Shown here piece after piece: positions 8,111-38,101 of a stretch of DNA of 64,000 nucleotides. The notes under the pieces were generated by a model. That model was not told the DNA's origin. It searched no databases and saw nothing but the letters and a program-made list of their open reading frames with translations. Position 1 is the stretch's first letter. Each line of letters starts with the position of its first letter. The translations under genes and the position numbers were made by a program. Origin of the DNA: Patescibacteria group bacterium (lineage in GTDB: Bacteria > Patescibacteriota > Patescibacteriia > UBA9570 > JAHJKD01); contig JBAZVM010000004.1 in assembly GCA_041660885.1 (NCBI GenBank), positions 22,423 to 86,422 of the forward strand, in the 5' to 3' direction.

Positions 8111-8116
8111 GATAAA

Positions 8117-8148
8117 CAAAAACCCCGCCATCGTGGCGGGGTTTTTTA
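8117..8148. terminator. bidirectional intrinsic terminator
   Basis: A-run, ACCCCGCCA-TCG-TGGCGGGGT, then a T-run, between convergent genes. Confidence 0.8.
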
Positions 8149-8160
8149 TTTTCGAAATAA

Positions 8161-8544
8161 TTATTTTCCTTTGGAAAGAACGTCTTTAATTTTCTGGACG
8201 ATTTCTCCGGTGGTGAAGTTGGCTTTAACCAAATAATCTGCCGCACCGAGTGATAAGCCTTTTTCCACTTTTTCTTCCTGGCCGAAGTTGGAAAGAATAA
8301 TTACGGGGATGTCTTTCGTGCCGGAAGCCGGATCCTTCTTTAAATTTTCCAATACCTCAAAACCGTCCATGCCGGGAAGCATGATGTCTAATAAGATAAT
8401 GTTCGGCTTGTCTTCTTGCGCTTTCTTAAGACCCGTTTCACCGTCATTGGCCGCGACCACGGAATAGCCTTCTTTGTCGAGCTTAGTGGAGATCAATTCA
8501 GCTAGGAATTTGTCGTCTTCTACTATGAGTACTTTGGTAGCCAT
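8161..8544 (-). CDS. stand-alone response regulator receiver domain (CheY-like)
   Basis: KVLIVEDD, ILLDIMLPGMDG and a conserved K in YLVKANF. 127 aa with no output domain. Confidence 0.85.
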   Translation of the reverse strand: MATKVLIVEDDKFLAELISTKLDKEGYSVVAANDGETGLKKAQEDKPNIILLDIMLPGMDGFEVLENLKKDPASGTKDIPVIILSNFGQEEKVEKGLSLGAADYLVKANFTTGEIVQKIKDVLSKGK

Positions 8545-11576: not shown

Positions 11577-11967
11577 ACTTAACGCAAGTTAAAGCGGAGG
11601 GATTTACCTGCAATCTTTTAATATCGATTTCTTTCCCGCACTTCTCGCATTTGCCGTATTCTCCGGATTCCATTTTTTTCAAAGCTTCGTCGATCAAATC
11701 TAATTTGCTTTCCAACTCGCCGGTGAGATTCAGGTTGATGCTGTAGTCTTCCACTTCGGAGGGCGATGAGTCTCCGGTTTCGATATCAGAGTCGTCGCCG
11801 TAGTCTGGAAAGTTCGGCGCGTATTTTCCCGGAACGTGGTCTCCTTTATCCGGCTTGGCCACGGATGATAAAGCTTCGATGATTTCTTCTTTTTCTTTTT
11901 GTAATTTATTTTTCAATTCCTCTAAAGTTTTCTTTTCCATGGCTTTGTGATTAATTTTATTGTTCAT
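11569..11967 (-). CDS. DksA/TraR-family C4 zinc-finger protein
   Basis: Coiled-coil N-terminus and C-terminal CEKCGKEI...CVKCG. Confidence 0.8.
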   Translation of the reverse strand: MNNKINHKAMEKKTLEELKNKLQKEKEEIIEALSSVAKPDKGDHVPGKYAPNFPDYGDDSDIETGDSSPSEVEDYSINLNLTGELESKLDLIDEALKKMESGEYGKCEKCGKEIDIKRLQVNPSALTCVKCG

Positions 11968-12002
11968 ATTATAGCAGAAAGAAAATAATAAAAAAAGATA
12001 GG

Positions 12003-12040
12003 AAAAAAAACAAATATAAAGCCCGGAATTAATTCCGGGC
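12003..12040 (-). terminator. intrinsic terminator of orphan transcription unit
   Basis: Perfect palindrome GCCCGGAATTAATTCCGGGC (12021-12040). On the minus strand it is followed by TTTATATTTGTTTTTTTT. Confidence 0.7.
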
Positions 12041-12427
12041 TAAAAGTTGTGAAGTTTGAAAGAGGGGCGCAAACGCCCCACTTCTTATTAAAAAGAATGT
12101 GATAATAGCGTAGCGCCCCAAACCCTTAAGCTAACCTTGTATTCGCCTCTTTTTTCAAAGAGGAAAACGCAAAGGATTTCCACTTAAGAGCAAGGTGCTC
12201 TTATTGTACATACCAGGAGTCGTACATATCCCCATAAGCGTAGCGGGGTTTCTCTACCATACCGCTGTCCCTCAGCTCTTCCGCAAGGGAAGAATAATCG
12301 AGGGCTCGCGAAACTTTTATTTTTGTTTTTTTCCTGGAATTTTGCACAGCAGAGAAAAATCTGTTTTCAATATGGCTTATTAAAAACAATTTTCTCGCCG
12401 CTCTTTTTCAATGTACTTTAGTGTACA
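12041..12427 (-). other. orphan transcript: structured GC-rich RNA and/or micro-ORF
   Basis: Bounded by a consensus promoter and a terminator. It contains several GC hairpins (GGGGCG-CAAA-CGCCCC at 12064-12079, CCTCTTT-TTTC-AAAGAGG at 12146-12163). The track ORF 12201..12389 starts with TTG. The only SD-led ATG gives MVEKPRYAYGDMYDSWYVQ (19 aa). Confidence 0.4.
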
Positions 12428-12433
12428 TATATA

Positions 12434-12462
12434 AGTATAACAAATTTTTCGGCTTTGGTCAA
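12434..12462 (-). promoter_or_regulatory. sigma70-like promoter
   Basis: On the minus strand: TTGACC (12462-12457), 17 nt spacer, TATACT (12439-12434). Confidence 0.6.
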
Positions 12463-12481
12463 TCATCTACATTCAATAATC

Positions 12482-12497
12482 GCTAACTTTAGCCAAA
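12482..12497. promoter_or_regulatory. third copy of GCTAA..TTAGC motif
   Basis: GCTAACTTTAGCCAAA is identical to 6541-6556. It lies about 20 nt upstream of the -35 at 12457-12462. Confidence 0.35.
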
Positions 12498-12563
12498 ATG
12501 AATGTTGATAACCTCGTTTGACACGCGTAAAAAATATTTGTCCACATGTGTATAACTTCTAAC

Positions 12564-12588
12564 AAAAAACCCCGCCGCGACGGGGTTT
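12564..12588 (-). terminator. gmk terminator
   Basis: CCCCG-CCGCGA-CGGGG, with a T-run on the minus strand (A-run 12564-12569). Confidence 0.8.
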
Positions 12589-12609
12589 GATTGTTATGAG
12601 AAAAATTAT

Positions 12610-13167
12610 TTACGAATTATTCTCTATCGTCTCTTTTACTTCCATAGCCGCGTCTTTTAATTTCCCTTCTTCGTTAACAACGAGATAATCCCAATCCAAC
12701 AAATTCTCTAATTCTTTCTTGGCCGTGTCTAATCTTTGTTTGATTACTTCTTTGGTATCTGTTTCGCGATTAACCAATCTTTTTTCCAAGTATTCATACG
12801 AAGGCGGCATGATAAAAATGGTTACGCAATCCGGACGCATACGTTTGAATGTCCTGGCGCCTTGCGGATCCACCTTTACCACGACTACTTTATGGTTTTT
12901 TAATTTGTCATCCACTTCTTGTTTGCCGCTGCCGTAATAATTTCCGTAAACTTGAGCCCACTCGATCATGTCTCCCGCGTCGATATTCTTTTTAAAATCA
13001 GCCACGGAAATAAAATGATACGGATGGCCTTCGCTTTCTCCGTTTCTCACTTCCCGAGTACTAGTTGTGATCACCTGAACAAAATTTAATCCAAGATCTT
13101 TGGCTTTATAAATTACGGAATCTTTTCCGGCGCCGGAAGGACCGGTAATGACAAATAACTTTCCCAT
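12610..13167 (-). CDS. gmk: guanylate kinase
   Basis: P-loop GPSGAGKDS and TTSTREVRNGESEGHPYHF. Confidence 0.95.
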   Translation of the reverse strand: MGKLFVITGPSGAGKDSVIYKAKDLGLNFVQVITTSTREVRNGESEGHPYHFISVADFKKNIDAGDMIEWAQVYGNYYGSGKQEVDDKLKNHKVVVVKVDPQGARTFKRMRPDCVTIFIMPPSYEYLEKRLVNRETDTKEVIKQRLDTAKKELENLLDWDYLVVNEEGKLKDAAMEVKETIENNS

Positions 13168-20002: not shown

Positions 20003-20040
20003 AAATAAAAATTGTTAATAATTAAAAGAAGAAAAAATTG

Positions 20041-20125
20041 TGGGGATGGAGAGATTTGAACTCTCACAACCTTGCGGTTACTAGCTCCTGAAGCTAGCGC
20101 GTCTACCAAATTCCGCCACATCCCC
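20041..20125 (-). tRNA. tRNA-Leu (anticodon CAG)
   Basis: Hand fold: acceptor GGGGATG/CATCCCC, anticodon arm CTAGC-TTCAGGA-GCTAG, a 15-nt variable arm, and T-arm GAGAG-TTCAAAT-CTCTC. No CCA encoded. Confidence 0.9.
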
Positions 20126-22217: not shown

Positions 22218-24263
22218 ATGCATAAAATATTAGCCTCGTTAAACAAGAAACAAAGAGAAGCGGCCGAAGCCTTGGAAGGTCCGGTGCTGATTTTGGCCGG
22301 AGCCGGATCGGGAAAGACCAAAACCTTAGTGCACCGCATCGCTTACTTGATAGATTACAAAGAAATCAAGCCGCAAAACATTTTAGCGGTTACTTTTACC
22401 AATAAAGCCGCTCAAGAAATGAAGGCGCGCATAAAAAAGCTGTTGCCCAAGAACGCCAAGGACATGCCCATGATGGGAACATTCCACGCGGTCTGCGCCC
22501 AGATACTAAGGAAAGAAATTTCCGTATTGGGTTACAGCAAGAATTTCGTGATCTTCGACGAGCATGACTCCATGCATCTTATTAAAAAGGTCATTAAAGA
22601 TTTAGGCTACGATATAAAAGATATTTCCCCGCGCGCCATTGCGGTGCTTATTTCCCGCGCCAAGAACGAGCTGCTTTCCGAGGATACTTTTTCCAAGCAA
22701 GCCGGAGATACCATAGAAAAAATCGCGGCCGAAGCCTACCACCAGTATCAAGCGGAATTAAAAGAGCATAACGCGCTGGATTTCGACGACCTGATACTTA
22801 AAACCGTTTTTATCATGGAAAAATATCCGGAAGTGCTTAAAAAATACCAAAAATTATTCAAATATATTTTGGTAGACGAGTATCAAGACACGAACCAAGC
22901 GCAATACATTTTAATAAAGCTTTTAGCCATGGCTCATAGAAATATTTGCGTGGTGGGAGACGATTACCAATCCATTTACGCTTGGCGCGGCGCCAATATG
23001 CGCAATATTCTAAATTTTGAAAAAGATTATCCCGATGCCAAAGTGATATTATTGGAACAAAACTACCGTTCCACGAAAAACATTTTGTACGCGGCCAACG
23101 AAGTTATAAAATACAACATCAATCAGAAGGATAAAAAATTATGGACGGAAAACCCCACCGGCTCCAAGCTGACTATTAAAGAAGCCAGCGACGAGAAAGA
23201 TGAAGGCGAATACATTATTAAGGAGATTCTGGGCATGGATACCAAGCCGAAAAAAGAAGAAGAAATAGTTTATGAAGCCGAGGATACTTTAATAGATAAA
23301 ATTTTAAAAAGCGCGGCTTTTAAAGTGAAGAAAAAGGACACCAAATTGTTGAATGAAGTAAAAGATAAATTAAAAAAAGTGGATCTGGCCGAATACGTGA
23401 TACTTTACCGCACCAACGCGCAATCGCGCGCTTTGGAAGAGTCATTCTTAAAATACGGAGTGCCCTACCGCATTATCGGCGGCATAAAATTTTACGAGAG
23501 AAAAGAAATCAAAGACATGATTTGCTATATGCGCGTGCTCATCAACCCGAACGACTGGGTGAGCTTGGAACGCGTGGTAAATGAACCAACCAGAGGACTC
23601 GGGCATGCTTCGTTTATTAAGATAGAAAAGCAATGCCGGGAAAAAGGGAAAAATTTTCTTGATATCACGGAAAAAGATTTACCCCCGCTCACGCCCAGAA
23701 CATTAAACTCTTTCTTAACTTTTCAAAAAACTTTAAAAGAACTGCACCAAGCTTTGAAAAAAAGCACGGCCACAAAAATGCTGGATTTGATTTTAGAAAA
23801 AACCGGCTATAAAAAAGCGCTGGAACAAGATGCGGAATTCGGCGAAACCAGATTGGAAAATATCTTGGAAATAAAAACCGTCACAAAAAAATTCGACCAC
23901 CTAAAAAGCGAAGAGGGCATTAACCGCTTTTTGGAAGAAGTGAGCTTGGTTTCGGACCAAGATGAAATAGACGAAAACTTGCCGGCTGTAAATTTAATGA
24001 CCATCCACGCGGCCAAAGGTTTGGAGTTTCCAAAAGTATTCATTGCCGGAGCCGAAGAAGGCCTCTTCCCCCACTCCCGCTCGCTTTTCGAGCCGGAACA
24101 GCTGGAAGAAGAACGCCGCCTTTGCTATGTGGCGATCACTCGCGCCAAACAAAAAGTATATATAGTATACGCCTCCCAGCGCCAAATTTACGGCTCCACC
24201 CAAGTGAATTCCCCTTCGCGTTTTATCGACGACTTGCCCGAAGACGCGATTGCCAAAGAATAG
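22218..24263 (+). CDS. pcrA: ATP-dependent DNA helicase PcrA/UvrD family
   Basis: Walker A AGAGSGKT, VDEYQDTN, YRS and IHAAKGLEF motifs. Confidence 0.95.
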   Translation: MHKILASLNKKQREAAEALEGPVLILAGAGSGKTKTLVHRIAYLIDYKEIKPQNILAVTFTNKAAQEMKARIKKLLPKNAKDMPMMGTFHAVCAQILRKEISVLGYSKNFVIFDEHDSMHLIKKVIKDLGYDIKDISPRAIAVLISRAKNELLSEDTFSKQAGDTIEKIAAEAYHQYQAELKEHNALDFDDLILKTVFIMEKYPEVLKKYQKLFKYILVDEYQDTNQAQYILIKLLAMAHRNICVVGDDYQSIYAWRGANMRNILNFEKDYPDAKVILLEQNYRSTKNILYAANEVIKYNINQKDKKLWTENPTGSKLTIKEASDEKDEGEYIIKEILGMDTKPKKEEEIVYEAEDTLIDKILKSAAFKVKKKDTKLLNEVKDKLKKVDLAEYVILYRTNAQSRALEESFLKYGVPYRIIGGIKFYERKEIKDMICYMRVLINPNDWVSLERVVNEPTRGLGHASFIKIEKQCREKGKNFLDITEKDLPPLTPRTLNSFLTFQKTLKELHQALKKSTATKMLDLILEKTGYKKALEQDAEFGETRLENILEIKTVTKKFDHLKSEEGINRFLEEVSLVSDQDEIDENLPAVNLMTIHAAKGLEFPKVFIAGAEEGLFPHSRSLFEPEQLEEERRLCYVAITRAKQKVYIVYASQRQIYGSTQVNSPSRFIDDLPEDAIAKE

Positions 24264-24283: not shown

Positions 24284-24317
24284 CAAAAAATCCCCCTAAA
24301 GAATAGGGGGATTTTAT
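24284..24317. terminator. bidirectional terminator
   Basis: A-run, TCCCCCTA-AAGAA-TAGGGGGA, then TTTTAT. Confidence 0.7.
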
Positions 24318-24360
24318 AATGGCAAAATGCGCGCCATATTTTTTTATTATTGGTAAGGCT

Positions 24361-24411
24361 GAGAAAGGGCAGCGAAGCATTTGTGTTTTGCTCCGCCGCC
24401 CTCTCTCTTCC
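24361..24411 (-). other. long imperfect 3' stem-loop after GC-rich ORF A
   Basis: GAGAAAGGGCAGCGAAGCA-TTTGTGTTT-TGCTCCGCCGCCCTCTCTC lies directly downstream of the stop at 24413. There is no U-tract. Confidence 0.5.
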
Positions 24412-24412
24412 C

Positions 24413-24853
24413 CTACTTCCTTAGCCAGATCTCCCCTTCGATAAATCGGGGGGAGCCCGACTGGACCCACGTAACCTTGTACGTAGTTTCGCAATCAAGG
24501 GGTCGAGACCCCAAGATCCGAATCCACAGTACAAGGGTGCCGGGATCAGCGGGAAGCCAGGTGTATTTTTCAACAACCTGTTCTTCTTCGCCAACCCACA
24601 CTCGTGGGTTAAAAAAGTAGGGCGCCAACCCAAACATGACAACCATCTTATGGCCCCAATCGCTGAGGGGCAGGTTGATTGTCAGGGTTGACGTTTCCCC
24701 GTTCCATCTCGCCTGCTCGACGCAAGCGAAGAGTGCATGGTGCAGAGCGCGAAGCTCTCCACCAACACTCTCGCCCACGGAAGGCGGATGGTCAGGGGAA
24801 GCCTTATCATCCCGAGCCGAAGATCGGGAGGGGAAAGGTAGAGCTCTCCCCAT
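24413..24853 (-). CDS. GC-rich hypothetical protein A (up to 146 aa)
   Basis: Hand GC count is 38/60 for nt 24721-24780, against 22/60 for nt 25021-25080. The SD-like AGGGGGTG precedes the ATG at 24853. The C-terminal half looks protein-like (KYTWLPADPGTLVLWIRILGSRPLDCETTYKVTWV). All six frames are fairly open here, so coding is unproven. Confidence 0.45.
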   Translation of the reverse strand: MGRALPFPSRSSARDDKASPDHPPSVGESVGGELRALHHALFACVEQARWNGETSTLTINLPLSDWGHKMVVMFGLAPYFFNPRVWVGEEEQVVEKYTWLPADPGTLVLWIRILGSRPLDCETTYKVTWVQSGSPRFIEGEIWLRK

Positions 24854-25033
24854 TTGGCACCCCCTGTTTCGGGGTTGAATGCGGCGTAATTGCCGACCGC
24901 ATAATGTATAACATTATTTTGATTTTGTCAATAGATATATGGAGATTTATAGCGTTTTTATTGACTTTTTTGAAAAAATATGATAAACTTATAATAGTTC
25001 AAATAATTTTTTAATCATTAAATTACTAAAAAT

Positions 25034-25621
25034 ATGAAAGAACCAGGATTCAATCCAGGAACAATCCCTGGCCAAGACAAAGAATCATTAGTAAACGAAG
25101 TCCAGACCGGTAATAAATTAGACATATCCGGACGAGGCACGGGCGTGGAAGAACCAACCGATATTGGGATATCTACAGAAGAAGCCGAACAATTTGTTGA
25201 GCTGCAAAAACAAATAGGGCAAATAAATGAAGAACAAGCAGCTGCATATCAGGTAAAATTAGACTATCTGAAAAAAAATGCTTCTAAACCTATAGATATC
25301 CGACATTTGGAAGATATCGATAGAATTTATCGACAAGTCCAAACGGGAGTCGAGCAGGAAGATATAGATGAGGGTCCGATTGCTGGGCCACCCAGCGATG
25401 AAGTATCTTCTGATCCCTATACAGTACCCCATGGCGATTCAGATCCAGGCCCCATTGAAACACTCCCTGATGACAATGAACAAGTTCAGCGAATAAACGA
25501 AAATGAAATTAAAGGGTCTGATATTACCTATGGGGAGCAGGCAGAATTGAGTGCTTTAGCGGCAAAACAAAGAGAAGAATCACAAAAACTTAGAATTAAA
25601 AAAAAACAGCTAGACAACTAG
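25034..25621 (+). CDS. acidic, probably disordered hypothetical protein (195 aa)
   Basis: ORF with an E/D/Q/P-rich composition and a C-terminal basic tail KLRIKKKQLDN. No family recognised. Confidence 0.55.
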   Translation: MKEPGFNPGTIPGQDKESLVNEVQTGNKLDISGRGTGVEEPTDIGISTEEAEQFVELQKQIGQINEEQAAAYQVKLDYLKKNASKPIDIRHLEDIDRIYRQVQTGVEQEDIDEGPIAGPPSDEVSSDPYTVPHGDSDPGPIETLPDDNEQVQRINENEIKGSDITYGEQAELSALAAKQREESQKLRIKKKQLDN

Positions 25622-25696
25622 CTGAGCAAGAGGCAGACAGAAAATCTTGGCAATTAGACTAAAATCAGATATAGATGCTCGCAATTAATTACTTCT

Positions 25697-25724
25697 AAAC
25701 CCCGCCTCGGCGGGGTTTATTTGT
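25697..25724. terminator. terminator between convergent genes
   Basis: ACCCCGCC-TC-GGCGGGGT followed by TTATTTGTTT. It overlaps the stop codon of kinase 1. Confidence 0.75.
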
Positions 25725-27723
25725 TTGCCGGGGGTTGTTCACCTAATTCTGTTGAAGCTTCTTTCTTTTGTTGCATCTTTCTTAATTCTCTAGCTCTTTT
25801 CCTTGCAGGATCTAAAAATGATTTAATAATATGATTCAAACCACCGGCTACCTGCATAATATCCGGCCTTGCATGTTGGGGGCCTATCATACTCTGGAAT
25901 AATATCTTTAATTGTCTTTTTGCCTCTGCTTCTTCTTTGGCGTCTTCTGTTTCTTGAGTATTTATTTCTATCTCTCCGGTGTTTTCAAGTACAGTATTAT
26001 GGCTCACCACCCACTCTGCATCTTCAGTATTATCAGGATCTAAAGTTATCGCTCCTCGGTTATGAAAGTCATCCAAGCCGAAAAACATGGCATACAAAGT
26101 AACTCCCAAAGAATAAATATCTTGTTTTTTATTATCGATTGCTTCCTGCGGCCTTAACTGTTTTTCAAACGGTAAAAATTTATTTATTTTTTCAGGAGAA
26201 GCATACCTTGGAGTAAAAGCTGCGCTTTCACTATCACTTTCACTTAAAGCATGCCCTTGCATCAATTCGGACGTATTAAAATCAAAAAAAGTAACTGCTA
26301 TTTGCGGATTTTCTAATCCGGGATATTTTCTCGCCGGATCAACCATAATATTTGCAGGTTTAATATCTAAATGAGCGAACCCCCGCTGGTGTATCCTAGC
26401 CAGCGCTATGGAGATTTTCCGCGCTATCAATAATTTTTGACTCAACTTTCTGGGAGTTTTTTCTCGCATTATACCAAACAAACTTTTAATCTTATCTTCT
26501 TCTCTCCTGTTTTCATTTTCGGCGACTATATTCTCCATTAATTCAAAAACTTGCGTAAATTTCGGCTTACCTTCTTGATTCTGAACAACCTGCGAGCCAT
26601 AAGTAAGGGGCATGGCTCTATCCGCGCTGCGCGTCTGCCCTTTTTTAGCCATAAAATAATCTTTTAAAACCTGCGGGTGCACTTTATGTTCGTATTCTCT
26701 GATTACTAAAGATAAAAGTTGTTCATCCTGCGCTTCCGCGGCTTTATCAAGATATCGCAAAATAATCGTATCCAACGGTTGGCCCACTTCTTTTATTCTA
26801 TCTTCGGTTCTTTTGAGTATTGCTTGTCTTTCTGTATCATGAGGCGCATAATTTTCCAATAACGTTCCCTGGCTTAGTATATCTTGGATAAATATTTCCT
26901 GATAAGTGCCAGCGATTATTGTTTTATTTCTATCAGAATCTCCTTCAGCGCTCGTAATCTTTAAAGCGTATTGGTTTCCTTCCGCATCACTAACCGCCCA
27001 CACTTCGGCTATTCCACCTTTACCAATGGGTTCAAGCAGTGTTATCTTTTTCCCCTGAACGATAAGAGATAAATTAGGTTCCGGAACATATGGTTGCTCC
27101 CGATGTTCACTACTGGATTCTTTTCGCCTGACAAACTGTTCAAAAGTTTTTTTTGGCGATACAATATTCCTTTCTTTTTCCCTGGCGGTCCTTTCCACAT
27201 AAAAACTGCTTGGCGGCGGAACAAAGCCCGTTGGTTCTTCGTCTCTTTGCGCTATTCTTTGCTGCAAATCAATCACATTGCCCTTCAGTTCTTCTTCCGC
27301 AGCCAATCTTTCGATGTTTCGATCGAGCGAGCGAATCTCTGTCGGCTCTCCTGTTTCAGTTTCAGCAGGAAGTATCTGAGTATCCAGTTCTTCGTTCGTA
27401 ATTTCTTTTCGCGCTATTCTTTCCTGCAAATCAATCACATTGTCTCGCGCTTTATCCGGCGCAACTTCTTCTGCTTGTTCCGGTTTTGTTTCGTTTAATA
27501 TTTCTTCTTCTTCTTTTTCTACAAGTCTAAAAAATTCCAATAATCTTCTTACCCCAAATTTTTTGGCTATTTGCCAGGCTTTTTCTTTTATCCCCGCCCA
27601 TCTTTCGTTTATTTCCAATCTTTCTTGTTCAGATATTGGTTGTTTACTCTCTTCAATTTCAACATCTTCAGCCTGAACTCTTCGCCCATTTCGTTTTCGT
27701 TCTACATCTGGATGAATTGCCAT
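25717..27723 (-). CDS. Hanks-type Ser/Thr protein kinase 1 (non-RD, large N-lobe insert)
   Basis: G-loop IGKGGIAEVW, YALKI (beta3 Lys), hinge ELMEN, catalytic loop HLDIKPAN, DFN in place of DFG, FTPRYASPE and DIYSLGVTLY. Confidence 0.85.
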   Translation of the reverse strand: MAIHPDVERKRNGRRVQAEDVEIEESKQPISEQERLEINERWAGIKEKAWQIAKKFGVRRLLEFFRLVEKEEEEILNETKPEQAEEVAPDKARDNVIDLQERIARKEITNEELDTQILPAETETGEPTEIRSLDRNIERLAAEEELKGNVIDLQQRIAQRDEEPTGFVPPPSSFYVERTAREKERNIVSPKKTFEQFVRRKESSSEHREQPYVPEPNLSLIVQGKKITLLEPIGKGGIAEVWAVSDAEGNQYALKITSAEGDSDRNKTIIAGTYQEIFIQDILSQGTLLENYAPHDTERQAILKRTEDRIKEVGQPLDTIILRYLDKAAEAQDEQLLSLVIREYEHKVHPQVLKDYFMAKKGQTRSADRAMPLTYGSQVVQNQEGKPKFTQVFELMENIVAENENRREEDKIKSLFGIMREKTPRKLSQKLLIARKISIALARIHQRGFAHLDIKPANIMVDPARKYPGLENPQIAVTFFDFNTSELMQGHALSESDSESAAFTPRYASPEKINKFLPFEKQLRPQEAIDNKKQDIYSLGVTLYAMFFGLDDFHNRGAITLDPDNTEDAEWVVSHNTVLENTGEIEINTQETEDAKEEAEAKRQLKILFQSMIGPQHARPDIMQVAGGLNHIIKSFLDPARKRARELRKMQQKKEASTELGEQPPANK

Positions 27724-27740
27724 AATATTTATTGTTTTAT

Positions 27741-29966
27741 TTATTGTTCTTGGGCTCTTTGTCTTCTTGCTTCTTCACTTTGTTGTTGTGACTCTTGTCT
27801 TTTTCGGGATTCTTCATTTTGTGCTTCTCTTGCAGCTATTTGTTCAGATCTATAAGGTGCATAAATAGCATAAAATTCGCGAGCTACATCGTCGATATTC
27901 GGACGCGATTCTACCGGACCGATCATTCTGGCAATTAAAACGGCTATTTTTCCTTCTGGTGACGATGGATCAACTTCCAATGCTTTCGGCTCACATTTTC
28001 TTTTTAATATTGAACCATGTTCAACTATATATTTTTTTACTTGTTCAATTGAAACTTGCGCTATTTTCGAATCAGTTCCTTTTCTTTGTTCTTGAGGCTT
28101 CTTTCCACTGCTATCGTAGAGATTATCACTACCGAAAAAAAGTCTGTACATTGTTATTCCTAAAGAATAAATATCGCGCTTTAAAAAGTCATCCTCACTT
28201 ATGTCTTTTTTAGCATCTTGGGCAAGAGCTTCCGGCGGCATATATCGGAAAGTACCGGTATTATAGTTTCGATCCTCCGGCAATAATAATTGGAATGTTT
28301 CGGCAAGGCCGGTATCTAATATCCTGGCATCCATGTTCTTTGGGTCAACCATCACATTAGCCGGTTTGATGTCGCGATGAGCAATGTGCCGCTGATGGAT
28401 TCTTCTTAAACCTAGCATCATTCCCATAGTTGCTCGCAGTCTCTGTTCTAAATTCAAATGATCTTCTATCTCTTCCAAATTCTGTATTTTTTCATTTTTC
28501 TCTCTATCCTTATTTTCCGCTGATACGTTTTCCATAAGCATAGCTATCTGAGTAACTCTCACTTCTGTTCCTAGTGTATATGATTTTAGCTGCTCTTTTA
28601 TTGCATTTATTATTTCCTTGCTATATAAAACCTTTTTAATCGGATCTTTTTCTTTATCTGCTTCGATAACTCCGGATGCTACTTTGCTAGACAGATCATT
28701 TATACTATTTAAATAATCACGAAAAACTTCTTTTGTTAAACTGCGCGGATTAATGCCTTCTCTGCTTAATGCTTTATATACTTGAGTGGCGACCGTTTTA
28801 GCTATAATAGCATCATTTTTCTCTGAACTGCGCGATTCCGTTACTCGCTGAATACCGGTTAATTCATCATAATAATCCCAAACAAAATTAATACCTTCAT
28901 TGGAAACAGCGTTAATATCCGATTTGATTATCTGGCTTTCATGAGCTTCTGGCACTCCTGTTACTTTTCTAGTTCTTCCGCTTTCAGCATCAGCATATCG
29001 ACGCACTAAAACTCTCGTATGAGGGTATTTTGCTTCGTGCGCTTGTAAAATTCTTTCTTTTTCCGTTTCATCTTCGCATTCTAACAATTTCAAAACCGTG
29101 CTTTCTGTGTCTGCTAAAGCTTTTTCGGAATATTCCGGATGGCTCTCGGCTATCTTTTCTCTTAAACTGCTGATTATCCCTCTTCGTTCTGTTTCATTAA
29201 AAATTTGGCCGCTAGATAAATAACTATTAATCATAGATTCGCGGCCTACTCTTACATATTCGCTTCTTCTGCGTAAATCTTCCTCTAGATTGCCTTTAAA
29301 CTCAACTAATTTTACGGCAAAAATTTGGCCAGATTTATCTCTGACTGAAAAGACGCTCCCAAAGCCGCCGCTTCCCAACAGACCAATTACTTCATAATTA
29401 TTACCGGCTATGGCAATACTTGATCCCGGTTCCATTATTACAGGGCCAGCATCCTCTCCTCTGATTTCTTTATGCGACTCTAAATTACGCATGTAATCTT
29501 GCAGAGGTTTTTCTATTCTTTCGCTACTTAATCTTATTTCTGAACTAGTATCCGTATACTGATCTTGTTTTGTTATTTCTTCGGCGTTTGGTTCATTGTC
29601 TGCCGCTTCTATTTCTCTTACAGTTGTCTCTAAATCTTCATCGGTTTCCTCTTCATTTAAACCGCCTGGCAGCACTTGTAAATCCGGCTGATCTGGCGCT
29701 TGTGCATCTTCGAGTACTTTATCTTCTGCTTGTTCTACTTTGAGCACTTCATCTTCTGCTTGTTCTACCAGACCGAAAAACTCCATTAATTTATTATACC
29801 CTAAAGCAGCAATTTTTCTTGCTTTCTCCATGATGCGCGCCCAGCGCTTATTTACTTCTTTTTTTTCTTGCTCGGAAATTGGCTGGCCCGCTTCTTCAAT
29901 TACAACACCTTCAGCAGGTACCCTGGGGCGAGCTGATTGTCTTTTTAAATCTGGATTTTGAGGCAT
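27741..29966 (-). CDS. Hanks-type Ser/Thr protein kinase 2 (very large N-lobe insert)
   Basis: G-loop LGSGGFGSVF, FAVKL, hinge MLMEN, HRDIKPAN, DTG in place of DFG, GTFRYMPPE and DIYSLGITMY. Confidence 0.9.
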   Translation of the reverse strand: MPQNPDLKRQSARPRVPAEGVVIEEAGQPISEQEKKEVNKRWARIMEKARKIAALGYNKLMEFFGLVEQAEDEVLKVEQAEDKVLEDAQAPDQPDLQVLPGGLNEEETDEDLETTVREIEAADNEPNAEEITKQDQYTDTSSEIRLSSERIEKPLQDYMRNLESHKEIRGEDAGPVIMEPGSSIAIAGNNYEVIGLLGSGGFGSVFSVRDKSGQIFAVKLVEFKGNLEEDLRRRSEYVRVGRESMINSYLSSGQIFNETERRGIISSLREKIAESHPEYSEKALADTESTVLKLLECEDETEKERILQAHEAKYPHTRVLVRRYADAESGRTRKVTGVPEAHESQIIKSDINAVSNEGINFVWDYYDELTGIQRVTESRSSEKNDAIIAKTVATQVYKALSREGINPRSLTKEVFRDYLNSINDLSSKVASGVIEADKEKDPIKKVLYSKEIINAIKEQLKSYTLGTEVRVTQIAMLMENVSAENKDREKNEKIQNLEEIEDHLNLEQRLRATMGMMLGLRRIHQRHIAHRDIKPANVMVDPKNMDARILDTGLAETFQLLLPEDRNYNTGTFRYMPPEALAQDAKKDISEDDFLKRDIYSLGITMYRLFFGSDNLYDSSGKKPQEQRKGTDSKIAQVSIEQVKKYIVEHGSILKRKCEPKALEVDPSSPEGKIAVLIARMIGPVESRPNIDDVAREFYAIYAPYRSEQIAAREAQNEESRKRQESQQQSEEARRQRAQEQ

Positions 29967-30044
29967 ATTGATTTTCTATAATTTTTTTTATTTTAACATT
30001 TTTTTTCTTAAAAAACAATAATATTGAAGATGATAATTTATGGA

Positions 30045-30118
30045 AGGCGGGAGAGAGAGGTGCCAACCCAGACTTTCGTCTACGACGCTTGCGCGCCGTC
30101 TCTCTCCTTAAGCCGCCC
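30045..30118 (-). other. long imperfect 3' stem-loop after GC-rich ORF B
   Basis: GGCGGGAGAGAGAGG (30047-30061) pairs with CCGTCTCTCTCC..GCCGCC (30096-30118). It overlaps the ORF B stop and lies between ORF B and the start of kinase 2. Confidence 0.5.
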
Positions 30119-30584
30119 TGAACGGGACGGGTCCGCAGTTTTCCCCGAGGGGAACCTTCCCGCTCGCGCGGAAATATTGCGAACCTGCCCACTGCAGAGT
30201 GAAACTCCTCTCGGCGTCAGAGCCCGTTTCCACGGAGGAAAAGATCGGCTCTGCAGAGCAGAAACCGAACCCAATCCATCCATCAACGGACTCGAGGATC
30301 TGTATGTTTTCCTCGCGGAATTCATAAGACCCTAACCGACCAATCAGATCTGGGAACGCAACAGACCGAACGTCCCTGACCCAAATGATCAGACAATAAG
30401 CCGAGAAAAACTCGATTTCCACCCTTGGGAGGGCTTCCTTCGAGCTGGAGTCTTCACCCCGAGCCCTTTCTTCGCTGGCGCTTGCCCAACGCTCAGCGAG
30501 AAAAACCACATTGCTGTGGCAGGGCTCCGCGGGGGCGGCCTTCTTTTCCTTCCGGCTCCGAAGGAGCCAATCGAACCAACACAT
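30108..30584 (-). CDS. GC-rich hypothetical protein B (158 aa)
   Basis: Strong SD: GGAGGGAG, then CC, then ATG (30594-30582). Hand GC count is 40/60 for nt 30481-30540. The sequence looks protein-like (VEIEFFSAYCLIIWVRDVRSVAFPDLIGRLGSYEF), whereas the other frames give R/P/S-rich junk. Confidence 0.5.
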   Translation of the reverse strand: MCWFDWLLRSRKEKKAAPAEPCHSNVVFLAERWASASEERARGEDSSSKEALPRVEIEFFSAYCLIIWVRDVRSVAFPDLIGRLGSYEFREENIQILESVDGWIGFGFCSAEPIFSSVETGSDAERSFTLQWAGSQYFRASGKVPLGENCGPVPFRAA

Positions 30585-30602
30585 GGCTCCCTCCAGGAGT
30601 TA

Positions 30603-30655
30603 GAAAAAATTGAAAACCAACCCCCTCGCGGGGGCGATTGACCCGTGTGGGCCAA
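30603..30655 (-). promoter_or_regulatory. leader with two hairpins, the second terminator-like (candidate attenuator)
   Basis: Minus-strand RNA: TTGGCCC-ACAC-GGGTCAA, then GCCCCC-GCGA-GGGGGT, followed by TGGTTTTCAATTTTTTC about 10 nt before the SD of ORF B. Confidence 0.45.
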
Positions 30656-30767
30656 CGAATGACCCTAACACATTAGTTTTAAAAAGTCAAGCTAATTATA
30701 TAGAATATCCCCTATTTTATTGATTTTTTAGCAATTTTATGCGAGAATTATATTGAATTTAAATAAT

Positions 30768-32294
30768 ATGCCTCAAGAAAGACAATTAGATAAAAAATTA
30801 TTAAGTGAAAAACATGTTAAACCGGAAGATTTAGATATTACAGAAGCTACAGATGATGAAATAGCACCTAAAGAAGAAGCCGGTAAAGTTCTTGAATTTA
30901 GGCGTGCGGCTGAAAGGGCAGAAGCGGAAGCGGCGCATCAAGCCGATGCTTTAAGCGCGGAAATTTCGCAAAGCATGGAAGTGCCCGGAGAGCCCTGGCT
31001 TGATCAATATCAAGATCCTCATCTTAGAAGATACGCCCATGAAAAATATACTCGGCTGATGCAACAGATTGCGGAATTAAAGCCGAAGCACGATAGCAAA
31101 GGTTTTTTACGCCGCCTATGGGAACGAACCACGGGAGCATACCAAGCCGAAGAAAGCCGGCTTGAGCAAATGAACCAAGCGCTGGCTGAGATATTAGAAG
31201 GAAGATTGGAAACATTAGTGAGAGCTGAGCAGAGCGGTCAAGCTAGATACACGAAAAAACAAGAAAGCACCGTAGATAGATTTGGACAACCGTTAGAAGC
31301 ATACGGGGAAGATGTCGTGTCTATAGATGAAATAGCCGGTACTGCTATTATTATTGATGGCATGTCTGGCATGAAAAAGGGAGGAATTGATAAATCTACT
31401 GCCGCTTTGATGGAAGCGGCTGGAACAAAACAAGAAATAACTGACGATTCATTGCCCATAGCAAAAGAAATCGCTTCGCGCTTAAACCGAGCTTTGCAAG
31501 AAATACCATCCGATATTTCAGGAGACCAAGCAGTGGCCGAATTAACGAAGAGCTTTAAAAATGTATTAAACAATATAGAGCTTGAAGTTACCGGTGGAGC
31601 CATGATTTTAGCTGTGAAATATTTGCCAGATACTGATGAATTATTAATCATAGATATTGGTAACTGCCAGTTAGCGCTTCAAGGCGTGGATAAATTTAGC
31701 GATATAAAATTAGACAGGGGTGGTATTTCTGCTTTCCAAACTTTTTACGACAAAAAAAATAAAAAAATTGGCATTTATGATAATAGACCGAATAATAAAA
31801 AAACTCCTTATATTTATTCTGTCCCTTTAGCGAATTTTAGAACTGACTCTAGCCAACCGATTACTTTATTTATGGGTTCAGACGGGTTGAATGAAACGAA
31901 TTCTCATATGACCCGAATACATGATTTAGAACAACAAGTGCAGCGTACTATAGAATTAATAGAAAAAGATGAGGCGCATATCACGGAGTTCCGAGAAAAA
32001 ATGAACGCCACTAACGACCCAAAAATAAGGGAGGGTATTTCCAAGCAAATAATGCGCAAGGAATTACGTTTAAGCGGCCGTCAAAAAACATTGGCCGTCC
32101 TACAAAGTAATTTAGAAGCTGGGGCCGGAAGAGAAAATCATTTTGGCAGTGCAAAAAACTTAACGGAATGTGCTCCTGTTTTACTAGAACGTGGCACAAG
32201 CGCTATTTCTGCTTTACCAAATACTGTGGATGATATATCTATAATACGCTTGGATATTCCGCCAAAAAAAGAAACGAGGGAATTAACTCATTAA
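30768..32294 (+). CDS. PP2C-family Ser/Thr phosphatase with ~190-aa N-terminal coiled-coil extension
   Basis: IIDGMSGMKKGG (DGMGG-like), LFMGSDGLNE (SDGL) and VDDISIIRLDI (DN/DI-T/S-vv) motifs. Start set at ATG 30768; the track uses TTG 30753. Confidence 0.8.
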   Translation: MPQERQLDKKLLSEKHVKPEDLDITEATDDEIAPKEEAGKVLEFRRAAERAEAEAAHQADALSAEISQSMEVPGEPWLDQYQDPHLRRYAHEKYTRLMQQIAELKPKHDSKGFLRRLWERTTGAYQAEESRLEQMNQALAEILEGRLETLVRAEQSGQARYTKKQESTVDRFGQPLEAYGEDVVSIDEIAGTAIIIDGMSGMKKGGIDKSTAALMEAAGTKQEITDDSLPIAKEIASRLNRALQEIPSDISGDQAVAELTKSFKNVLNNIELEVTGGAMILAVKYLPDTDELLIIDIGNCQLALQGVDKFSDIKLDRGGISAFQTFYDKKNKKIGIYDNRPNNKKTPYIYSVPLANFRTDSSQPITLFMGSDGLNETNSHMTRIHDLEQQVQRTIELIEKDEAHITEFREKMNATNDPKIREGISKQIMRKELRLSGRQKTLAVLQSNLEAGAGRENHFGSAKNLTECAPVLLERGTSAISALPNTVDDISIIRLDIPPKKETRELTH

Positions 32295-32374
32295 CTTTAA
32301 ATTTATTCTGTTGTTTGACAAACAAAGCCTAAATAGCTTAAGATTATATAATTTTATAATTCCACTAAACTATT

Positions 32375-32941
32375 ATGGACAATAAAAATATAGATTGGGA
32401 CGACATATATAGAGACCCGCAAATACGCGCCGTGGCGCAAAGCCGCTATGCCGAGCTTAATAAAGAACGCGAAGATTTAGGCGCGCAGATGAAAGAAATA
32501 GAAGAAGAGATGAGAACCTGGCAAAAAGCCTGGAAAAATATTTTAGAGCGCCGGCTGATTATGGAACAAAAAATTCGCGCCAAAGATAAAATGATTCGCC
32601 ATGTTTTTCCCGTACAGCCGCCAGCCATAACAACCAACCAGCAACCAGTCATAAAAAATCAACAACTATTTTCCAACACGGAAAAATTTATCGTAAAAAA
32701 CGAACAAAAAAAAACCGTCAGCCAGCAGCCGATAGCTCCTAGCCAACCTTCCGCTAATGTAAATTTAAAGCCCGTTCCCAAAGTAGGAAGCAACACCGCG
32801 TTGGATGAATTAAAAGCCGCCAAGCTGGAAGAAGCCAGTTTAAGGCAAAGCCCCACGGCCACGGCCTTGGATATTGCCACGCTTCAAGAAAAAATTAAAT
32901 CTCTCACACAAAAATTAAACACGCAGACTTCTACGGTGTAG
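32375..32941 (+). CDS. hypothetical protein (188 aa) sharing an N-terminal motif with the PP2C
   Basis: WDDIYRDPQIRAVAQSRYAEL compares with WLDQYQDPHLRRYAHEKYTRL in the phosphatase. Q/P/T-rich C-terminal half. Confidence 0.6.
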   Translation: MDNKNIDWDDIYRDPQIRAVAQSRYAELNKEREDLGAQMKEIEEEMRTWQKAWKNILERRLIMEQKIRAKDKMIRHVFPVQPPAITTNQQPVIKNQQLFSNTEKFIVKNEQKKTVSQQPIAPSQPSANVNLKPVPKVGSNTALDELKAAKLEEASLRQSPTATALDIATLQEKIKSLTQKLNTQTSTV

Positions 32942-34174
32942 TTTTCTATAATAAGTAATGGCAAAACGGTGCGCTTCATCGCGCATGCGCTGGAGCAAAA
33001 AATATCCGGCGGTATTCGGCTTCAGCCTCAGTGTGTCTTTCTGCTCCGCCTGATAAATTTCCTCTTCCCTTTTGGCCAAAGCGATAACCGGTATGTTGGC
33101 TTTTTTTATTAAGGACAGGCAAGCGGAAAGCTGGCCCGCGCCGCCATCGAGCATTATCAAATCCGGCCTGCCCCATTCGTTATGGCGCAGCCTTCTTTTT
33201 ATTACCTCTTTCATCATGGCCGTGTCATTGCTTTGGAAGACTGTTTTAATTTTGAACTTTCTATAATTATTTTTATCCGGCAAACCATTGGTAAAAACCA
33301 CCATGGAGCCAACCGCGAATTTTCCTTGAATATTGGAAATATCAAAAATCTCTACGCGCTTTAAGTTATTAAGCCGCAAACCAGCTGCCAATTGTTTTAA
33401 CCCTTGCGGAATATTCAAGTGCTTTTGCTCGTAATATTTTTTTAAGTAGTCTTCCGGCGTTTTTATTATTTCTTTTAAACGGTCTATGGCTTGGAGCTGA
33501 TTCCGATAAAGCGCCGCTTTTTCAAATTGCTCATGATGGGCGGCCGTGCGCATCTTTTTTTCCGTAATTTTATAGATAGCCTGATTTTTTCCTTCAAAAA
33601 AATCTATAGTTTTTTTAATCATGTTCTGGTACTGCTTTTGGCTGATTTTATTTTTGCATGGCGCGCTGCACCGGTTCATGTAAAATTCCAAGCATGGCTT
33701 CTTGGGCAATTTGTGGCAAGTGCGGAAAGGAAAAACGCGATGCAAAAGCTTATGTACTAAGCGCAGACTCTTGGCCGAAGGGTATGGCCCGAAAAAAGCC
33801 GAGCCATTCTTAAAGTTGGGTTGGCGTACCAACAATACTCTGGGATAATCCTCGGCCGTTATTTCCACGTATAAATAACCTTTATCGTCTTTGAGCATGA
33901 TATTAAAGCGCGGCTTGAATTTTTTAATGAGCTCATTTTCCAAAACTAAGGCGTCGTCTTCCGATTCCACTTTAATAATTTCCAAATCGTTAATCTGCCG
34001 GCGCATTATAATTTGCCAAGCGGTAGTTTCGCGGCTTTTTTGAAAATACGAACGCACGCGAGAACGCAGATTCTTGGCTTTTCCCACATATAATATATTC
34101 CGCTGCTTATTTTTAAATATATAAACACCGGGCGTTTTCGGCAGATTCTTTAGTTTTTTAGCCAGTTTATCCAT
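32915..34174 (-). CDS. uvrC: excinuclease ABC subunit C, short form lacking C-terminal (HhH)2
   Basis: GIY-YIG (GVYIFKNKQRNILYVGKAKNLRSRVRSY), UVR-like HEQFEKAALYRNQLQAI, and an endonuclease domain ending RDEAHRFAITYYRKLHRR, followed shortly by the stop. Start set at ATG 34174. Confidence 0.88.
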   Translation of the reverse strand: MDKLAKKLKNLPKTPGVYIFKNKQRNILYVGKAKNLRSRVRSYFQKSRETTAWQIIMRRQINDLEIIKVESEDDALVLENELIKKFKPRFNIMLKDDKGYLYVEITAEDYPRVLLVRQPNFKNGSAFFGPYPSAKSLRLVHKLLHRVFPFRTCHKLPKKPCLEFYMNRCSAPCKNKISQKQYQNMIKKTIDFFEGKNQAIYKITEKKMRTAAHHEQFEKAALYRNQLQAIDRLKEIIKTPEDYLKKYYEQKHLNIPQGLKQLAAGLRLNNLKRVEIFDISNIQGKFAVGSMVVFTNGLPDKNNYRKFKIKTVFQSNDTAMMKEVIKRRLRHNEWGRPDLIMLDGGAGQLSACLSLIKKANIPVIALAKREEEIYQAEQKDTLRLKPNTAGYFLLQRMRDEAHRFAITYYRKLHRRSLRV

Positions 34175-34202
34175 ATATATATTGTAGCACATCCGGCCAT
34201 GC

Positions 34203-38024: not shown

Positions 38025-38096
38025 CGCGGGGTAGAGCAGTGGCAGCTCGGCTGGCTCATAACCAGCAGGTCGGTGGTTCGACTCCACCCCCCGCAA
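38025..38096 (+). tRNA. initiator tRNA-fMet (anticodon CAT)
   Basis: The 5' end is CGCGGGG and the 3' end CCCCGCA-A, giving the C1xA72 mismatch typical of bacterial initiators. Anticodon loop CTCATAA, T-arm GGTGG-TTCGACT-CCACC. No CCA encoded. Confidence 0.9.
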
Positions 38097-38101
38097 CATT
38101 C

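Follow-up and report, generated by a model that had tools for sequence, protein, structure and literature searches.

Bacterial pairs of Hanks-type kinases and PP2C phosphatases are common, and in PknB-PstP of Mycobacterium tuberculosis, PrkC-PrpC of Bacillus subtilis and Stk1-Stp1 of Staphylococcus aureus the gene for a Hanks-type kinase lies beside a gene for a PP2C-fold protein. Among RNAs, the large 'ornate' bacterial RNAs include OLE (about 600 nt), ROOL and GOLLD (PMC12286853, PMC9723947), elements of a sort known from long GC-rich intergenic regions (PMC12286853, PMC9723947, PMC8723152). Dual-function RNAs such as RNAIII/hld, SgrS/SgrT, SR1/SR1P, VcdRP and AzuCR combine an RNA-level function and an open reading frame (ORF) in one transcript (PMC12612679, PMC12310071, PMC8672173); their peptides are usually of <50 amino acids (aa) and the RNAs mostly of 150-500 nt (PMC12310071). 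Here we describe an island that resembles each of these in part, located in a 64-kb stretch (the window) of a Patescibacteria metagenome-assembled genome (contig JBAZVM010000004.1, assembly GCA_041660885.1). The island is bounded by pcrA (22218-24263, plus strand) and uvrC (32915-34192, minus strand) and contains genes for two Hanks-type kinases and a PP2C-like protein together with two GC-rich elements, A and B. A mechanical ORF list reproduced the seven ORFs that an earlier note on this DNA had placed in the island, with the same coordinates and strands.

We read the island, tentatively, as a lineage-restricted, fast-evolving cytoplasmic kinase/phosphatase module accompanied by two structure-selected, translated transcripts whose products would act in the same circuit. 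The protein part would consist of a tandem pair of paralogous Hanks-type kinases together with a PP2C-type phosphatase that is highly diverged and divergently transcribed; these would most likely operate as a reversible phosphorylation switch on soluble partners, with small helical or acidic partner proteins linked by short common motifs. A and B would each be a minus-strand transcript of ~0.6 kb, apparently made from its own extended -10 promoter, as the promoter-like sites suggest, and RNA secondary structure would be the property under selection in both. Each element holds an ORF of ~150 codons with a Shine-Dalgarno (SD) sequence and an AUG, and ORF B appears to stay open without constraint at the amino-acid level; A and B may be structure-gated or dual-function mRNAs, with the SD lying within predicted alternative pairings, and their small, fast-evolving products may be part of the kinase/phosphatase circuit. 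The features of the island are as follows.

24292-24310, both strands: bidirectional terminator hairpin (CCCCC...GGGGG with U-runs on both strands), common to pcrA (plus) and element A (minus), from a terminator scan
24330-24896, minus strand: element A, GC 0.55, stably folded predicted transcript of ~570 nt with approximate ends, from folding against shuffles
24413-24853, minus strand: ORF A, 146 codons, inside element A, from the ORF list
24903-24931, minus strand: promoter-like site of element A, TTGACA-17-TACATT or alternatively a TGT-TATACA extended -10, consensus match by eye
25034-25621, plus strand: acidic 195-aa protein, from the ORF list
25696-25719, no strand assigned: hairpin terminator between the convergent genes for the acidic protein and kinase 1, from the terminator scan
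25717-27723, minus strand: kinase 1, 668 aa, Hanks-type (Pfam Pkinase, 1.8e-19)
27741-29966, minus strand: kinase 2, 741 aa, Hanks-type (Pfam Pkinase, 1.4e-26)
29990-30018, minus strand: promoter-like element 5' of kinase 2, TTGTTT-N14-TGT-TAAAAT, kept in the second genome (L003, see below), from pairwise alignment
30030-30655, minus strand: element B, GC 0.57, stably folded predicted transcript of ~625 nt, kept in L003, from folding against shuffles
30050-30107, minus strand: 3' domain of element B, a 58-nt four-way junction, from the alignment with L003
30108-30584, minus strand: ORF B, 158 codons, with SD GGAGGGAG at about 30587-30594, from the ORF list
30596-30655, minus strand: 5' leader of element B with hairpins P1 and P2, from the alignment with L003
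30662-30690, minus strand: promoter-like element of B, TTGACT-N14-TGT-TAGGGT, kept in L003, from pairwise alignment
30768-32294, plus strand: PP2C-like protein, 508 aa from an ATG or 513 aa from an upstream TTG, from a predicted model and Foldseek
32375-32941, plus strand: 188-aa protein with a W..Y.DP..R..A...Y motif, from pairwise comparison

The earlier note had described A and B as two GC-rich mini-genes. The GC enrichment was confirmed (0.50-0.57 against a window mean of 0.41), the status of the two as genes was weakened by the absence of any family and by marginal ORF lengths, and the extreme RNA folding of both regions had been overlooked. Minimum free energies (MFE) were compared with those of dinucleotide shuffles, by which composition was controlled. 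The minus strand of A folded at -300 kcal/mol against -204 ± 7 for its shuffles (z -14.1) and that of B at -310 against -248 (z -9.7); the plus strands gave z-scores of -8.4 and -4.3, respectively, a weaker folding that is expected if G-U pairs matter. When all 580-nt windows of the 64 kb were ranked on both strands by MFE regressed on GC and G+T, A and B were the two strongest outliers, with residuals of -100 kcal (z -7.7) and -69 kcal (z -5.3), and the next unrelated 580-nt window reached a z of only -3.4. The ORF segments alone had z-scores of -8.5 (A), -6.6 (B) and -7.7 (the L003 copy of B), compared with +0.9 to -4.1 for eight segments of control coding sequence, of which five were matched in GC (0.49-0.56).

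A search of Rfam 15 (OLE, ROOL, GOLLD, HEARO, RNase P, tmRNA, 6S, introns and others) returned nothing credible over A or B at E≤10, and BLASTN found no similarity of A to B or to the window. Candidates discarded were tmRNA, RNase P, 6S RNA and introns, for which there was no Rfam or ARAGORN match; TIGR/CRISPR-like arrays, for want of repeats; omega-RNA, bridge RNA and retrons, since no adjoining transposase or reverse transcriptase was noticed by eye among the ORFs at 20-38 kb, whose products were not put through a domain search; and an endogenised RNA-phage coat gene, a pure speculation with no Pfam match.

The only relative of the island that we found is a 5.1-kb Logan contig from SRR22388163 (L003), and all comparisons of element B are therefore between two genomes. 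The two copies of B align over their full length, with 83-85% identity over the ~110 nt at the 5' end and the ~120 nt at the 3' end and 57% in the middle, and the AT-rich flanks that hold extended -10 promoter-like elements are also kept. Because synonymous sites in the neighbouring genes are saturated between both genomes (pS, the proportion of synonymous differences, is 0.62-0.71), the ends of B are under strong nucleotide-level selection. The L003 copy has a folding z of -10.2 of its own, and the RNAalifold consensus energy of the alignment was -170 kcal against -108.6 ± 5.8 for column-shuffled alignments (z -10.6); taken separately, the central part had a consensus-fold z-score of -5.9 and the 3' domain one of -6.2. 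This domain begins directly after the stop codon of ORF B and consists of an 8-bp stem, GGAGAGAG/CUCUCUCC, that encloses three hairpins, two of which have GCAA and GAAA loops. All ten of its substitutions between the two sequences fall within five pairs, and all five pairs are compensatory with none broken, where column-shuffled alignments gave 0.35 ± 0.5 compensatory pairs.

Hairpins with GNRA or UUCG loops and a stem of at least 4 bp are in excess in B (7 vs 0.98 expected) and in its L003 copy (9 vs 0.87; P<1/300), compared with 0-1 on the plus strands, 0.4-1.3 per kb in neighbouring mRNAs and a single one in element A, and a 36-nt insertion in the L003 copy is a whole UUCG hairpin. It is because of the near-invariant structured ends, the compensatory changes at the 3' junction, the GNRA/UUCG excess and the conserved consensus fold that we take the structure of B to be selected; judged from the alignment, structuredness is kept throughout B and a specific structure is demonstrated for the ends only. 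The leader reads P1, P2 (GCCCCC-GCGA-GGGGGU) and a U-rich tract, in an order and sequence identical in L003 save for the P1 loop. The P2 hairpin (30620-30635, minus strand), followed by UGGUUUUCAAUUUUUU, is a terminator-like arrangement ~35-50 nt after the presumed transcription start that is 100% kept in L003; P2 may attenuate transcription or mark where a short RNA ends. The three minus-strand promoter-like sites (24903-24931, 29990-30018 and 30662-30690) all have a 'TGT-TAnnnn' extended -10, and both of those that can be compared are kept in L003. A metagenome scan with the 5' motif of B recovered the same sequence again (L004) and one chance match (L005).

There are also signs that the ORFs are translated. 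An SD-like GGGGGUG lies 5 nt before the AUG of ORF A, and in both genomes the same AUG of ORF B is preceded by GGAGG(G)AG and followed by 158 and 165 open codons, respectively. The internal indels of ORF B (6, 3, 36 and 9 nt) are all multiples of 3, permutation of the mismatched bases left the frame open in only 2% of trials (P=0.02), and nucleotides show a weak, though significant, periodicity by codon position in each of the two B homologues (p=0.019 and p=0.0036). ORF A exceeds the lengths expected from shuffles (P=0.0085 on the minus strand, 0.03 on any), and ORF B does so less clearly (P=0.094 and 0.17, respectively). Every predicted fold of B pairs the SD, either locally or with a conserved 3' CCUUC; in the RNAalifold consensus GGAGG pairs with this CCUUC over 5 bp, of which one side only varies. 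Both ORFs are publicly deposited as hypothetical proteins. ORF A found only itself among 5.8 billion proteins (E≤1), ORF B found only itself and the L003 ORF among 1.84 billion representatives in a full HMMER search, and neither had a match in Pfam, NCBIfam or PADLOC. On balance we favour translation of ORF B, with a protein sequence that is probably not the main target of selection.

Both kinases are of the Hanks type. Their Pfam PF00069 scores are 70.6 (kinase 1) and 93.9 bits (kinase 2) against a cutoff of 31.7, and kinase 2 is labelled a protein kinase by NCBI. Kinase 1 carries the signatures GKGGIAEV...ALK, HLDIKPAN (non-RD), DFN and SPE, and kinase 2 GSGGFGSV...AVK, HRDIKPAN, DTG and PPE; the catalytic-loop motifs are predicted to be intact in both, with DFG and APE in variant forms. 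As the earlier note had proposed, the two are paralogues (BLASTP 1e-25 and 7e-24, full length) with a common N-terminal module, which is spanned by the 7e-24 alignment and is 53% identical over the first 100 aa. The insert that it had seen in kinase 2 is likewise borne out: alignment with a solved kinase in the PDB (N-lobe 189-236 and C-lobe 516-618 against residues 15-63 and 129-227) places ~280 aa between N-lobe and catalytic loop instead of ~66, and hence ~215 extra residues. In kinase 1 the insert is ~150 aa by an estimate made by eye, taken from the start of the Pfam match (residue 413) and the position of the N-lobe Lys motif (around residue 255), and the protein contains two DNVIDLQ/GNVIDLQ repeats. 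Kinase 2 lies upstream of kinase 1, and because the gap is only 17 nt the two probably form one operon. An in-frame 30-nt tandem duplication at 29708-29768 (two copies, 90% match) repeats VEQAEDxVL in the acidic N-terminal region of kinase 2.

Kinase 2 had no match but itself at E≤1e-10 in a database of 5.8 billion proteins; only the 8000 most word-similar candidates were scored, and with this cutoff weaker relatives may be missed. A scan of genome contigs with kinase 2 gave a single irrelevant locus (L001), and a phage BLAST of kinase 1 gave no match. The PADLOC and NCBIfam matches of the kinases (mad6, PD-T4-6, LanL and LegK1) are confined to the generic kinase core and far under the family cut-offs; a lanthipeptide synthetase context was dropped on the same ground, the matches being confined to the kinase domain.

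The PP2C claim of the earlier note rests on a predicted structure and not on sequence profiles: the top Foldseek matches are all PP2C, yet the model is of low confidence and the motifs were read by eye. Neither this protein (P0003) nor its sole relative, P0004 on L003 (about 42-44% identity), matched PP2C, PP2C_2 or SpoIIE in Pfam at E≤10, and P0003 had no family match in NCBIfam (E≤0.1) or among PDB sequences (E≤10). An AlphaFold model from two-sequence input (mean predicted local distance difference test score, pLDDT, 53.6) nevertheless had PP2C folds as its top 15 PDB matches (5mqh at 9e-4, 2j82, 3f7a, 6jkv and others; probability 0.84-1.0), with TM-scores, normalised to the target, of 0.23-0.43 for this low-confidence model; SpoIIE, tPphA, RssB, PppA, PstP and Stp1 are among the matches. 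GED, IDG(M/I)S, GSDGL and VDD(I/V)S are kept between P0003 and P0004, with GED181-182, IDG197-198, SDG371-373 and DD488-489 invariant, and we tentatively take the Asp residues in these, by eye, to be those of PP2C motifs I (ED), II (DGxxG), VIII (DG) and XI (D[DN]). The model predicts that a helical N-terminal region of ~170 aa, in which the W..Y.DP motif lies, is followed by a PP2C-like core and that residues ~377-482 form a long helical insertion; on this basis the 513-aa protein is a probable PP2C-like protein. In PADLOC it had two marginal and unrelated matches, JetB and ZorA (E about 0.01).

The motif that the earlier note had recognised in both the PP2C-like and the 188-aa proteins gave a pairwise E of 6e-4; W..Y.DP..R..A...Y occurs in these two proteins in each genome, and the rest of the window lacks it. 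The 188-aa protein is 70% identical to a 170-aa protein of L003, with a ratio of nonsynonymous to synonymous differences (pN/pS) of 0.27 in frame against 1.1-1.3 out of frame, and by this measure is under clear purifying selection. For the acidic 195-aa protein no family, relative or domain was found in Pfam, PADLOC or NCBIfam. None of the seven products has a transmembrane segment, again as the earlier note had it (maximum 19-aa Kyte-Doolittle mean 1.32). A second short motif, [DGS]NV[VIL]x[FL], is present twice in kinase 1 (aa ~111 and ~165), once in the ORF B product (aa ~24-29), once each in the kinase and the PP2C-like protein of L003 and also in the ORF B of L003; in the remainder of the window it is rare. 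In the island proteins of either genome an Ala/Arg-rich helix comes after this motif, which may serve in docking.

Several results weigh against a structure-selected and translated pair of transcripts acting with the kinases and phosphatase. Element B is known from two genomes and A from one, and with two genomes the covariation support for B is thin by our sequence comparisons. Central MFE pairs are kept no better than in slid controls (about 43% in both), and the whole alignment contains 21 compensatory pairs against 20.5 in the column-shuffle null. The controls of a separate count of structure pairs are biased, since the structure counted had itself come from these two sequences. Covariance models of the B leader and 3' domain, run over the window with filters off, found B only and not A, and the architectural likeness of A and B is by eye only. 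The coding evidence is weak. ORF A has no significant 3-periodicity (p=0.19); the pN/pS of ORF B in its own frame, 0.70, lies within the 0.67-0.83 of the other five, where three control genes had 0.20-0.52 in frame and 0.86-1.3 out of frame; its amino-acid identity and BLOSUM score are the same as in the other five frames; and its AlphaFold2 model has no confident fold (pLDDT 39.9). Substitutions in ORF B are distributed over the codon positions as 62/61/79, and GC content at second codon positions (GC2) in the GC-rich ORFs is about 0.5, unlike that of real genes in the window. The SNVV residues of the motif in ORF B are specified by the sequence of a conserved GCAA hairpin, and this motif may be an RNA by-product. 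On the protein side, the PP2C model is of low confidence, with no hidden Markov model (HMM) in support.

Alternatively, A and B may be pure non-coding RNAs that form a new, narrowly distributed class of large structured RNA, an explanation we consider possible though somewhat unlikely. Their ORFs would then be incidental to GC-rich sequence, and the RNAs would scaffold or regulate the neighbouring kinases and phosphatase or do something unrelated. This explanation would account for the extreme and strand-asymmetric folding z-scores, the excess of GNRA/UUCG loops with the complete UUCG hairpin inserted in L003, the compensatory changes in the 3' domain, the GC2 of about 0.5 and the lack of frame-specific protein constraint and of any protein family or fold, and structured non-coding RNAs are enriched in long GC-rich intergenic regions (PMC8723152, PMC11109978). 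It is less easily reconciled with an ORF B that is kept in both genomes (P=0.02) with four of four internal indels in multiples of 3, with a good SD at the correct spacing before the AUG, with the weak but significant 3-periodicity of both B homologues and with the greater than expected length of ORF A (P=0.0085-0.03).

A further explanation, which we think doubtful, is that B serves the operon of kinases 2 and 1 as a long leader, or attenuator, that is translated. P2 and its U-tract would end transcription early; the passage of ribosomes through the ORF, whose sequence would be irrelevant, would rearrange the 3' junction at the stop codon, and kinase expression would be set in this way. B is indeed co-oriented with kinase 2 and directly upstream of it, the terminator-like P2 and U-tract are kept in the leader, ORF B is open without amino-acid constraint, the 3' domain adjoins the stop codon and the terminator scan found no canonical terminator 3' of B. 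Arguing the other way are the promoter-like element kept in both genomes between B and kinase 2, an element A of comparable build that has no downstream gene and only the terminator it shares with pcrA, and the length of ORF B, which at 158 codons is far above that of known leader peptides. The same promoter-like element bears on the suggestion in the earlier note that a single transcript runs from ORF B through kinase 1, which is possible, although B also has a promoter-like element of its own.

A bolder proposal, which we regard as equally doubtful, is that A and B are the first representatives of a novel class of large (~0.6 kb), structured, GNRA-rich RNAs functionally coupled to Ser/Thr kinases of the Candidate Phyla Radiation, or structure-selected 'superfolder' transcripts for which only the act of translation matters and not its product. 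In the former case they could be RNA scaffolds or activators of the insert-bearing kinases, by a logic analogous to that of dsRNA-activated kinases such as PKR.

The earlier note had read the locus as an accessory island with N-terminal modules typical of docking or trafficking domains in polymorphic effector families; such modules could serve, for instance, in delivery by this episymbiont into a host cell. Here the second genome is informative. L003 contains, in order, a kinase N-terminus (minus strand), the GC-rich element B (minus), the PP2C-like gene (plus), a 136-aa gene, the 170-aa homologue of the 188-aa gene (plus) and uvrC (minus). The arrangement adjoining uvrC is the same as in the window, down to a 27-nt overlap, and the island is therefore not a recent insertion. 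Amino-acid identity between the genomes falls from 80% in uvrC and 70% in the 188-aa protein to 44% in the PP2C-like protein and about 31% in the kinase N-terminus; as far as two contigs can tell, the island is fixed at its uvrC-adjoining position and fast-evolving. GC content at third codon positions (GC3) is 0.28-0.31 in the island protein genes against 0.47-0.58 in pcrA, uvrC, uvrA, RNase J and ribosomal-protein-like ORFs, which suggests a different origin or expression level. Low GC3 and fast divergence would be only hints of a separate history, with which an accessory origin is compatible.

This fast evolution and low GC3 would suit an island of effectors, as would the short motifs common to otherwise unrelated proteins, the weak match of the kinase domains to the NCBIfam model of the Legionella effector kinase LegK1 and the presence of the Legionella PP2C-fold effector SidD among low-ranked fold matches. 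We nevertheless find such an island improbable: the products have no transmembrane segment or signal peptide, and no secretion genes were met, although no search was aimed at them; the modules were seen only in this island and its L003 counterpart and not on diverse bodies; the position beside uvrC is fixed in both genomes; and there is no link to phage or defence beyond generic kinase-domain matches. The kinase N-terminal module itself was found in the two paralogous kinases and, weakly, in the L003 kinase (E 0.12), in comparisons that did not use the modules as profile queries. Two pattern scans of viral contigs and a phage BLAST of both RNAs likewise returned nothing. That the two ORFs are simply small protein genes of the usual kind, acquired from a GC-rich donor, with incidental folding, as their open frames, SD-like sequences and public annotation as hypothetical proteins might suggest, is very improbable given z-scores measured against dinucleotide shuffles and far beyond those of GC-matched control coding segments, which lie around 0, untranslated ends far more conserved than the ORF, compensatory pairs in the 3' untranslated region and, for ORF B, no homologue in any GC-rich organism among the 1.84 billion representatives.

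Other observations concern the neighbourhood. The additional 136-aa gene of L003 (2798-3208) lies between the PP2C-like and 170-aa genes, is not in the window and has no credible Pfam match. The 188-aa gene and uvrC are convergent, and their 27-nt overlap falls at 32915-32941 in the window and 3812-3838 in L003. Only two tRNAs pass the Rfam gathering score in the whole window, and these, tRNA-Leu(CAG) (20040-20125, minus strand) and tRNA-Met(CAT) (38025-38097, plus strand), are its only Rfam/ARAGORN RNA genes. A stretch of ~640 nt at 11967-12610 has no ORF, several hairpins and no Rfam match and may contain terminators or a small RNA; the 580-nt window at 11891-12470 (minus strand) has an MFE residual z of -3.2, and the z-scores of 150-nt windows there fall locally as low as -6 to -8. 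The strongest signal of the 150-nt folding scan (z -8.7) is at 8101-8250 (plus strand), where the ORF at 6833-8110 is followed by that at 8161-8544; a terminator hairpin is its probable source.

If our reading of the island is right, a kinase/PP2C pair tied, physically and in its evolution, to two very stably folded 0.6-kb RNAs without a family would be a new regulatory arrangement, in a phylum, Patescibacteria, with almost no experimental RNA biology. Element B joins near-invariant structured ends, a fast-changing and hyper-structured middle and an ORF that stays open without amino-acid constraint, and is a testable case of overlapping selection at the levels of RNA and translation. The deposition of A and B as 'hypothetical proteins' is also a warning for annotation.

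The statement of the earlier note that the combination matches no described system holds: kinase 2 has no other match at E≤1e-10 and ORF A none at E≤1, and the PP2C-like protein and ORF B have one relative each, both on L003. Its observations overall were largely right, and its interpretation is partly supported. Among anti-phage kinase systems (PADLOC mad6/MADS, PD-T4-6 and MkoA), HMMs match the island kinases at 1e-16 to 1e-31, but the matches span the generic C-lobe only, NCBIfam MAD6 scores are 56-65 bits against a cutoff of 460 and the partner genes are absent; the other five island products have no PADLOC match save the marginal JetB and ZorA matches of the PP2C-like protein. Like hok-type type I toxin mRNAs, B would be a highly structured mRNA whose 5' initiation region pairs, in the predictions, with sequence far along the RNA or at its 3' terminus. 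The hok product is a hydrophobic toxin of ~50 aa, and hok is accompanied by an antisense RNA; in B we saw neither such a toxin nor an antisense partner, and a hok-like type I toxin was dropped as a candidate because the ORF is too long and not hydrophobic. A and B differ from dual-function RNAs in the length of the ORF, about 150 codons here. They resemble OLE, ROOL and GOLLD in being ~600 nt long, GC-rich relative to the genome and dense in stable hairpins and GNRA loops, and differ from them in having no Rfam match, in being known from two genomes only, in retaining an SD-AUG ORF over about 75% of the RNA and in a central pairing that is not demonstrably kept pair by pair. The likeness to PknB/PstP-type pairs extends to the appearance of PstP, Stp1 and StkP among the structural or sequence matches of the island proteins. 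Unlike those pairs, the island has no transmembrane segment and no PASTA or other sensor domain; it has two tandem kinases with inserts of ~150-215 aa within the kinase domain and a private N-terminal module, a phosphatase beyond the reach of any HMM with a ~170-aa helical N-terminal region and a ~100-aa helical insertion, and two large structured RNA elements associated with them.

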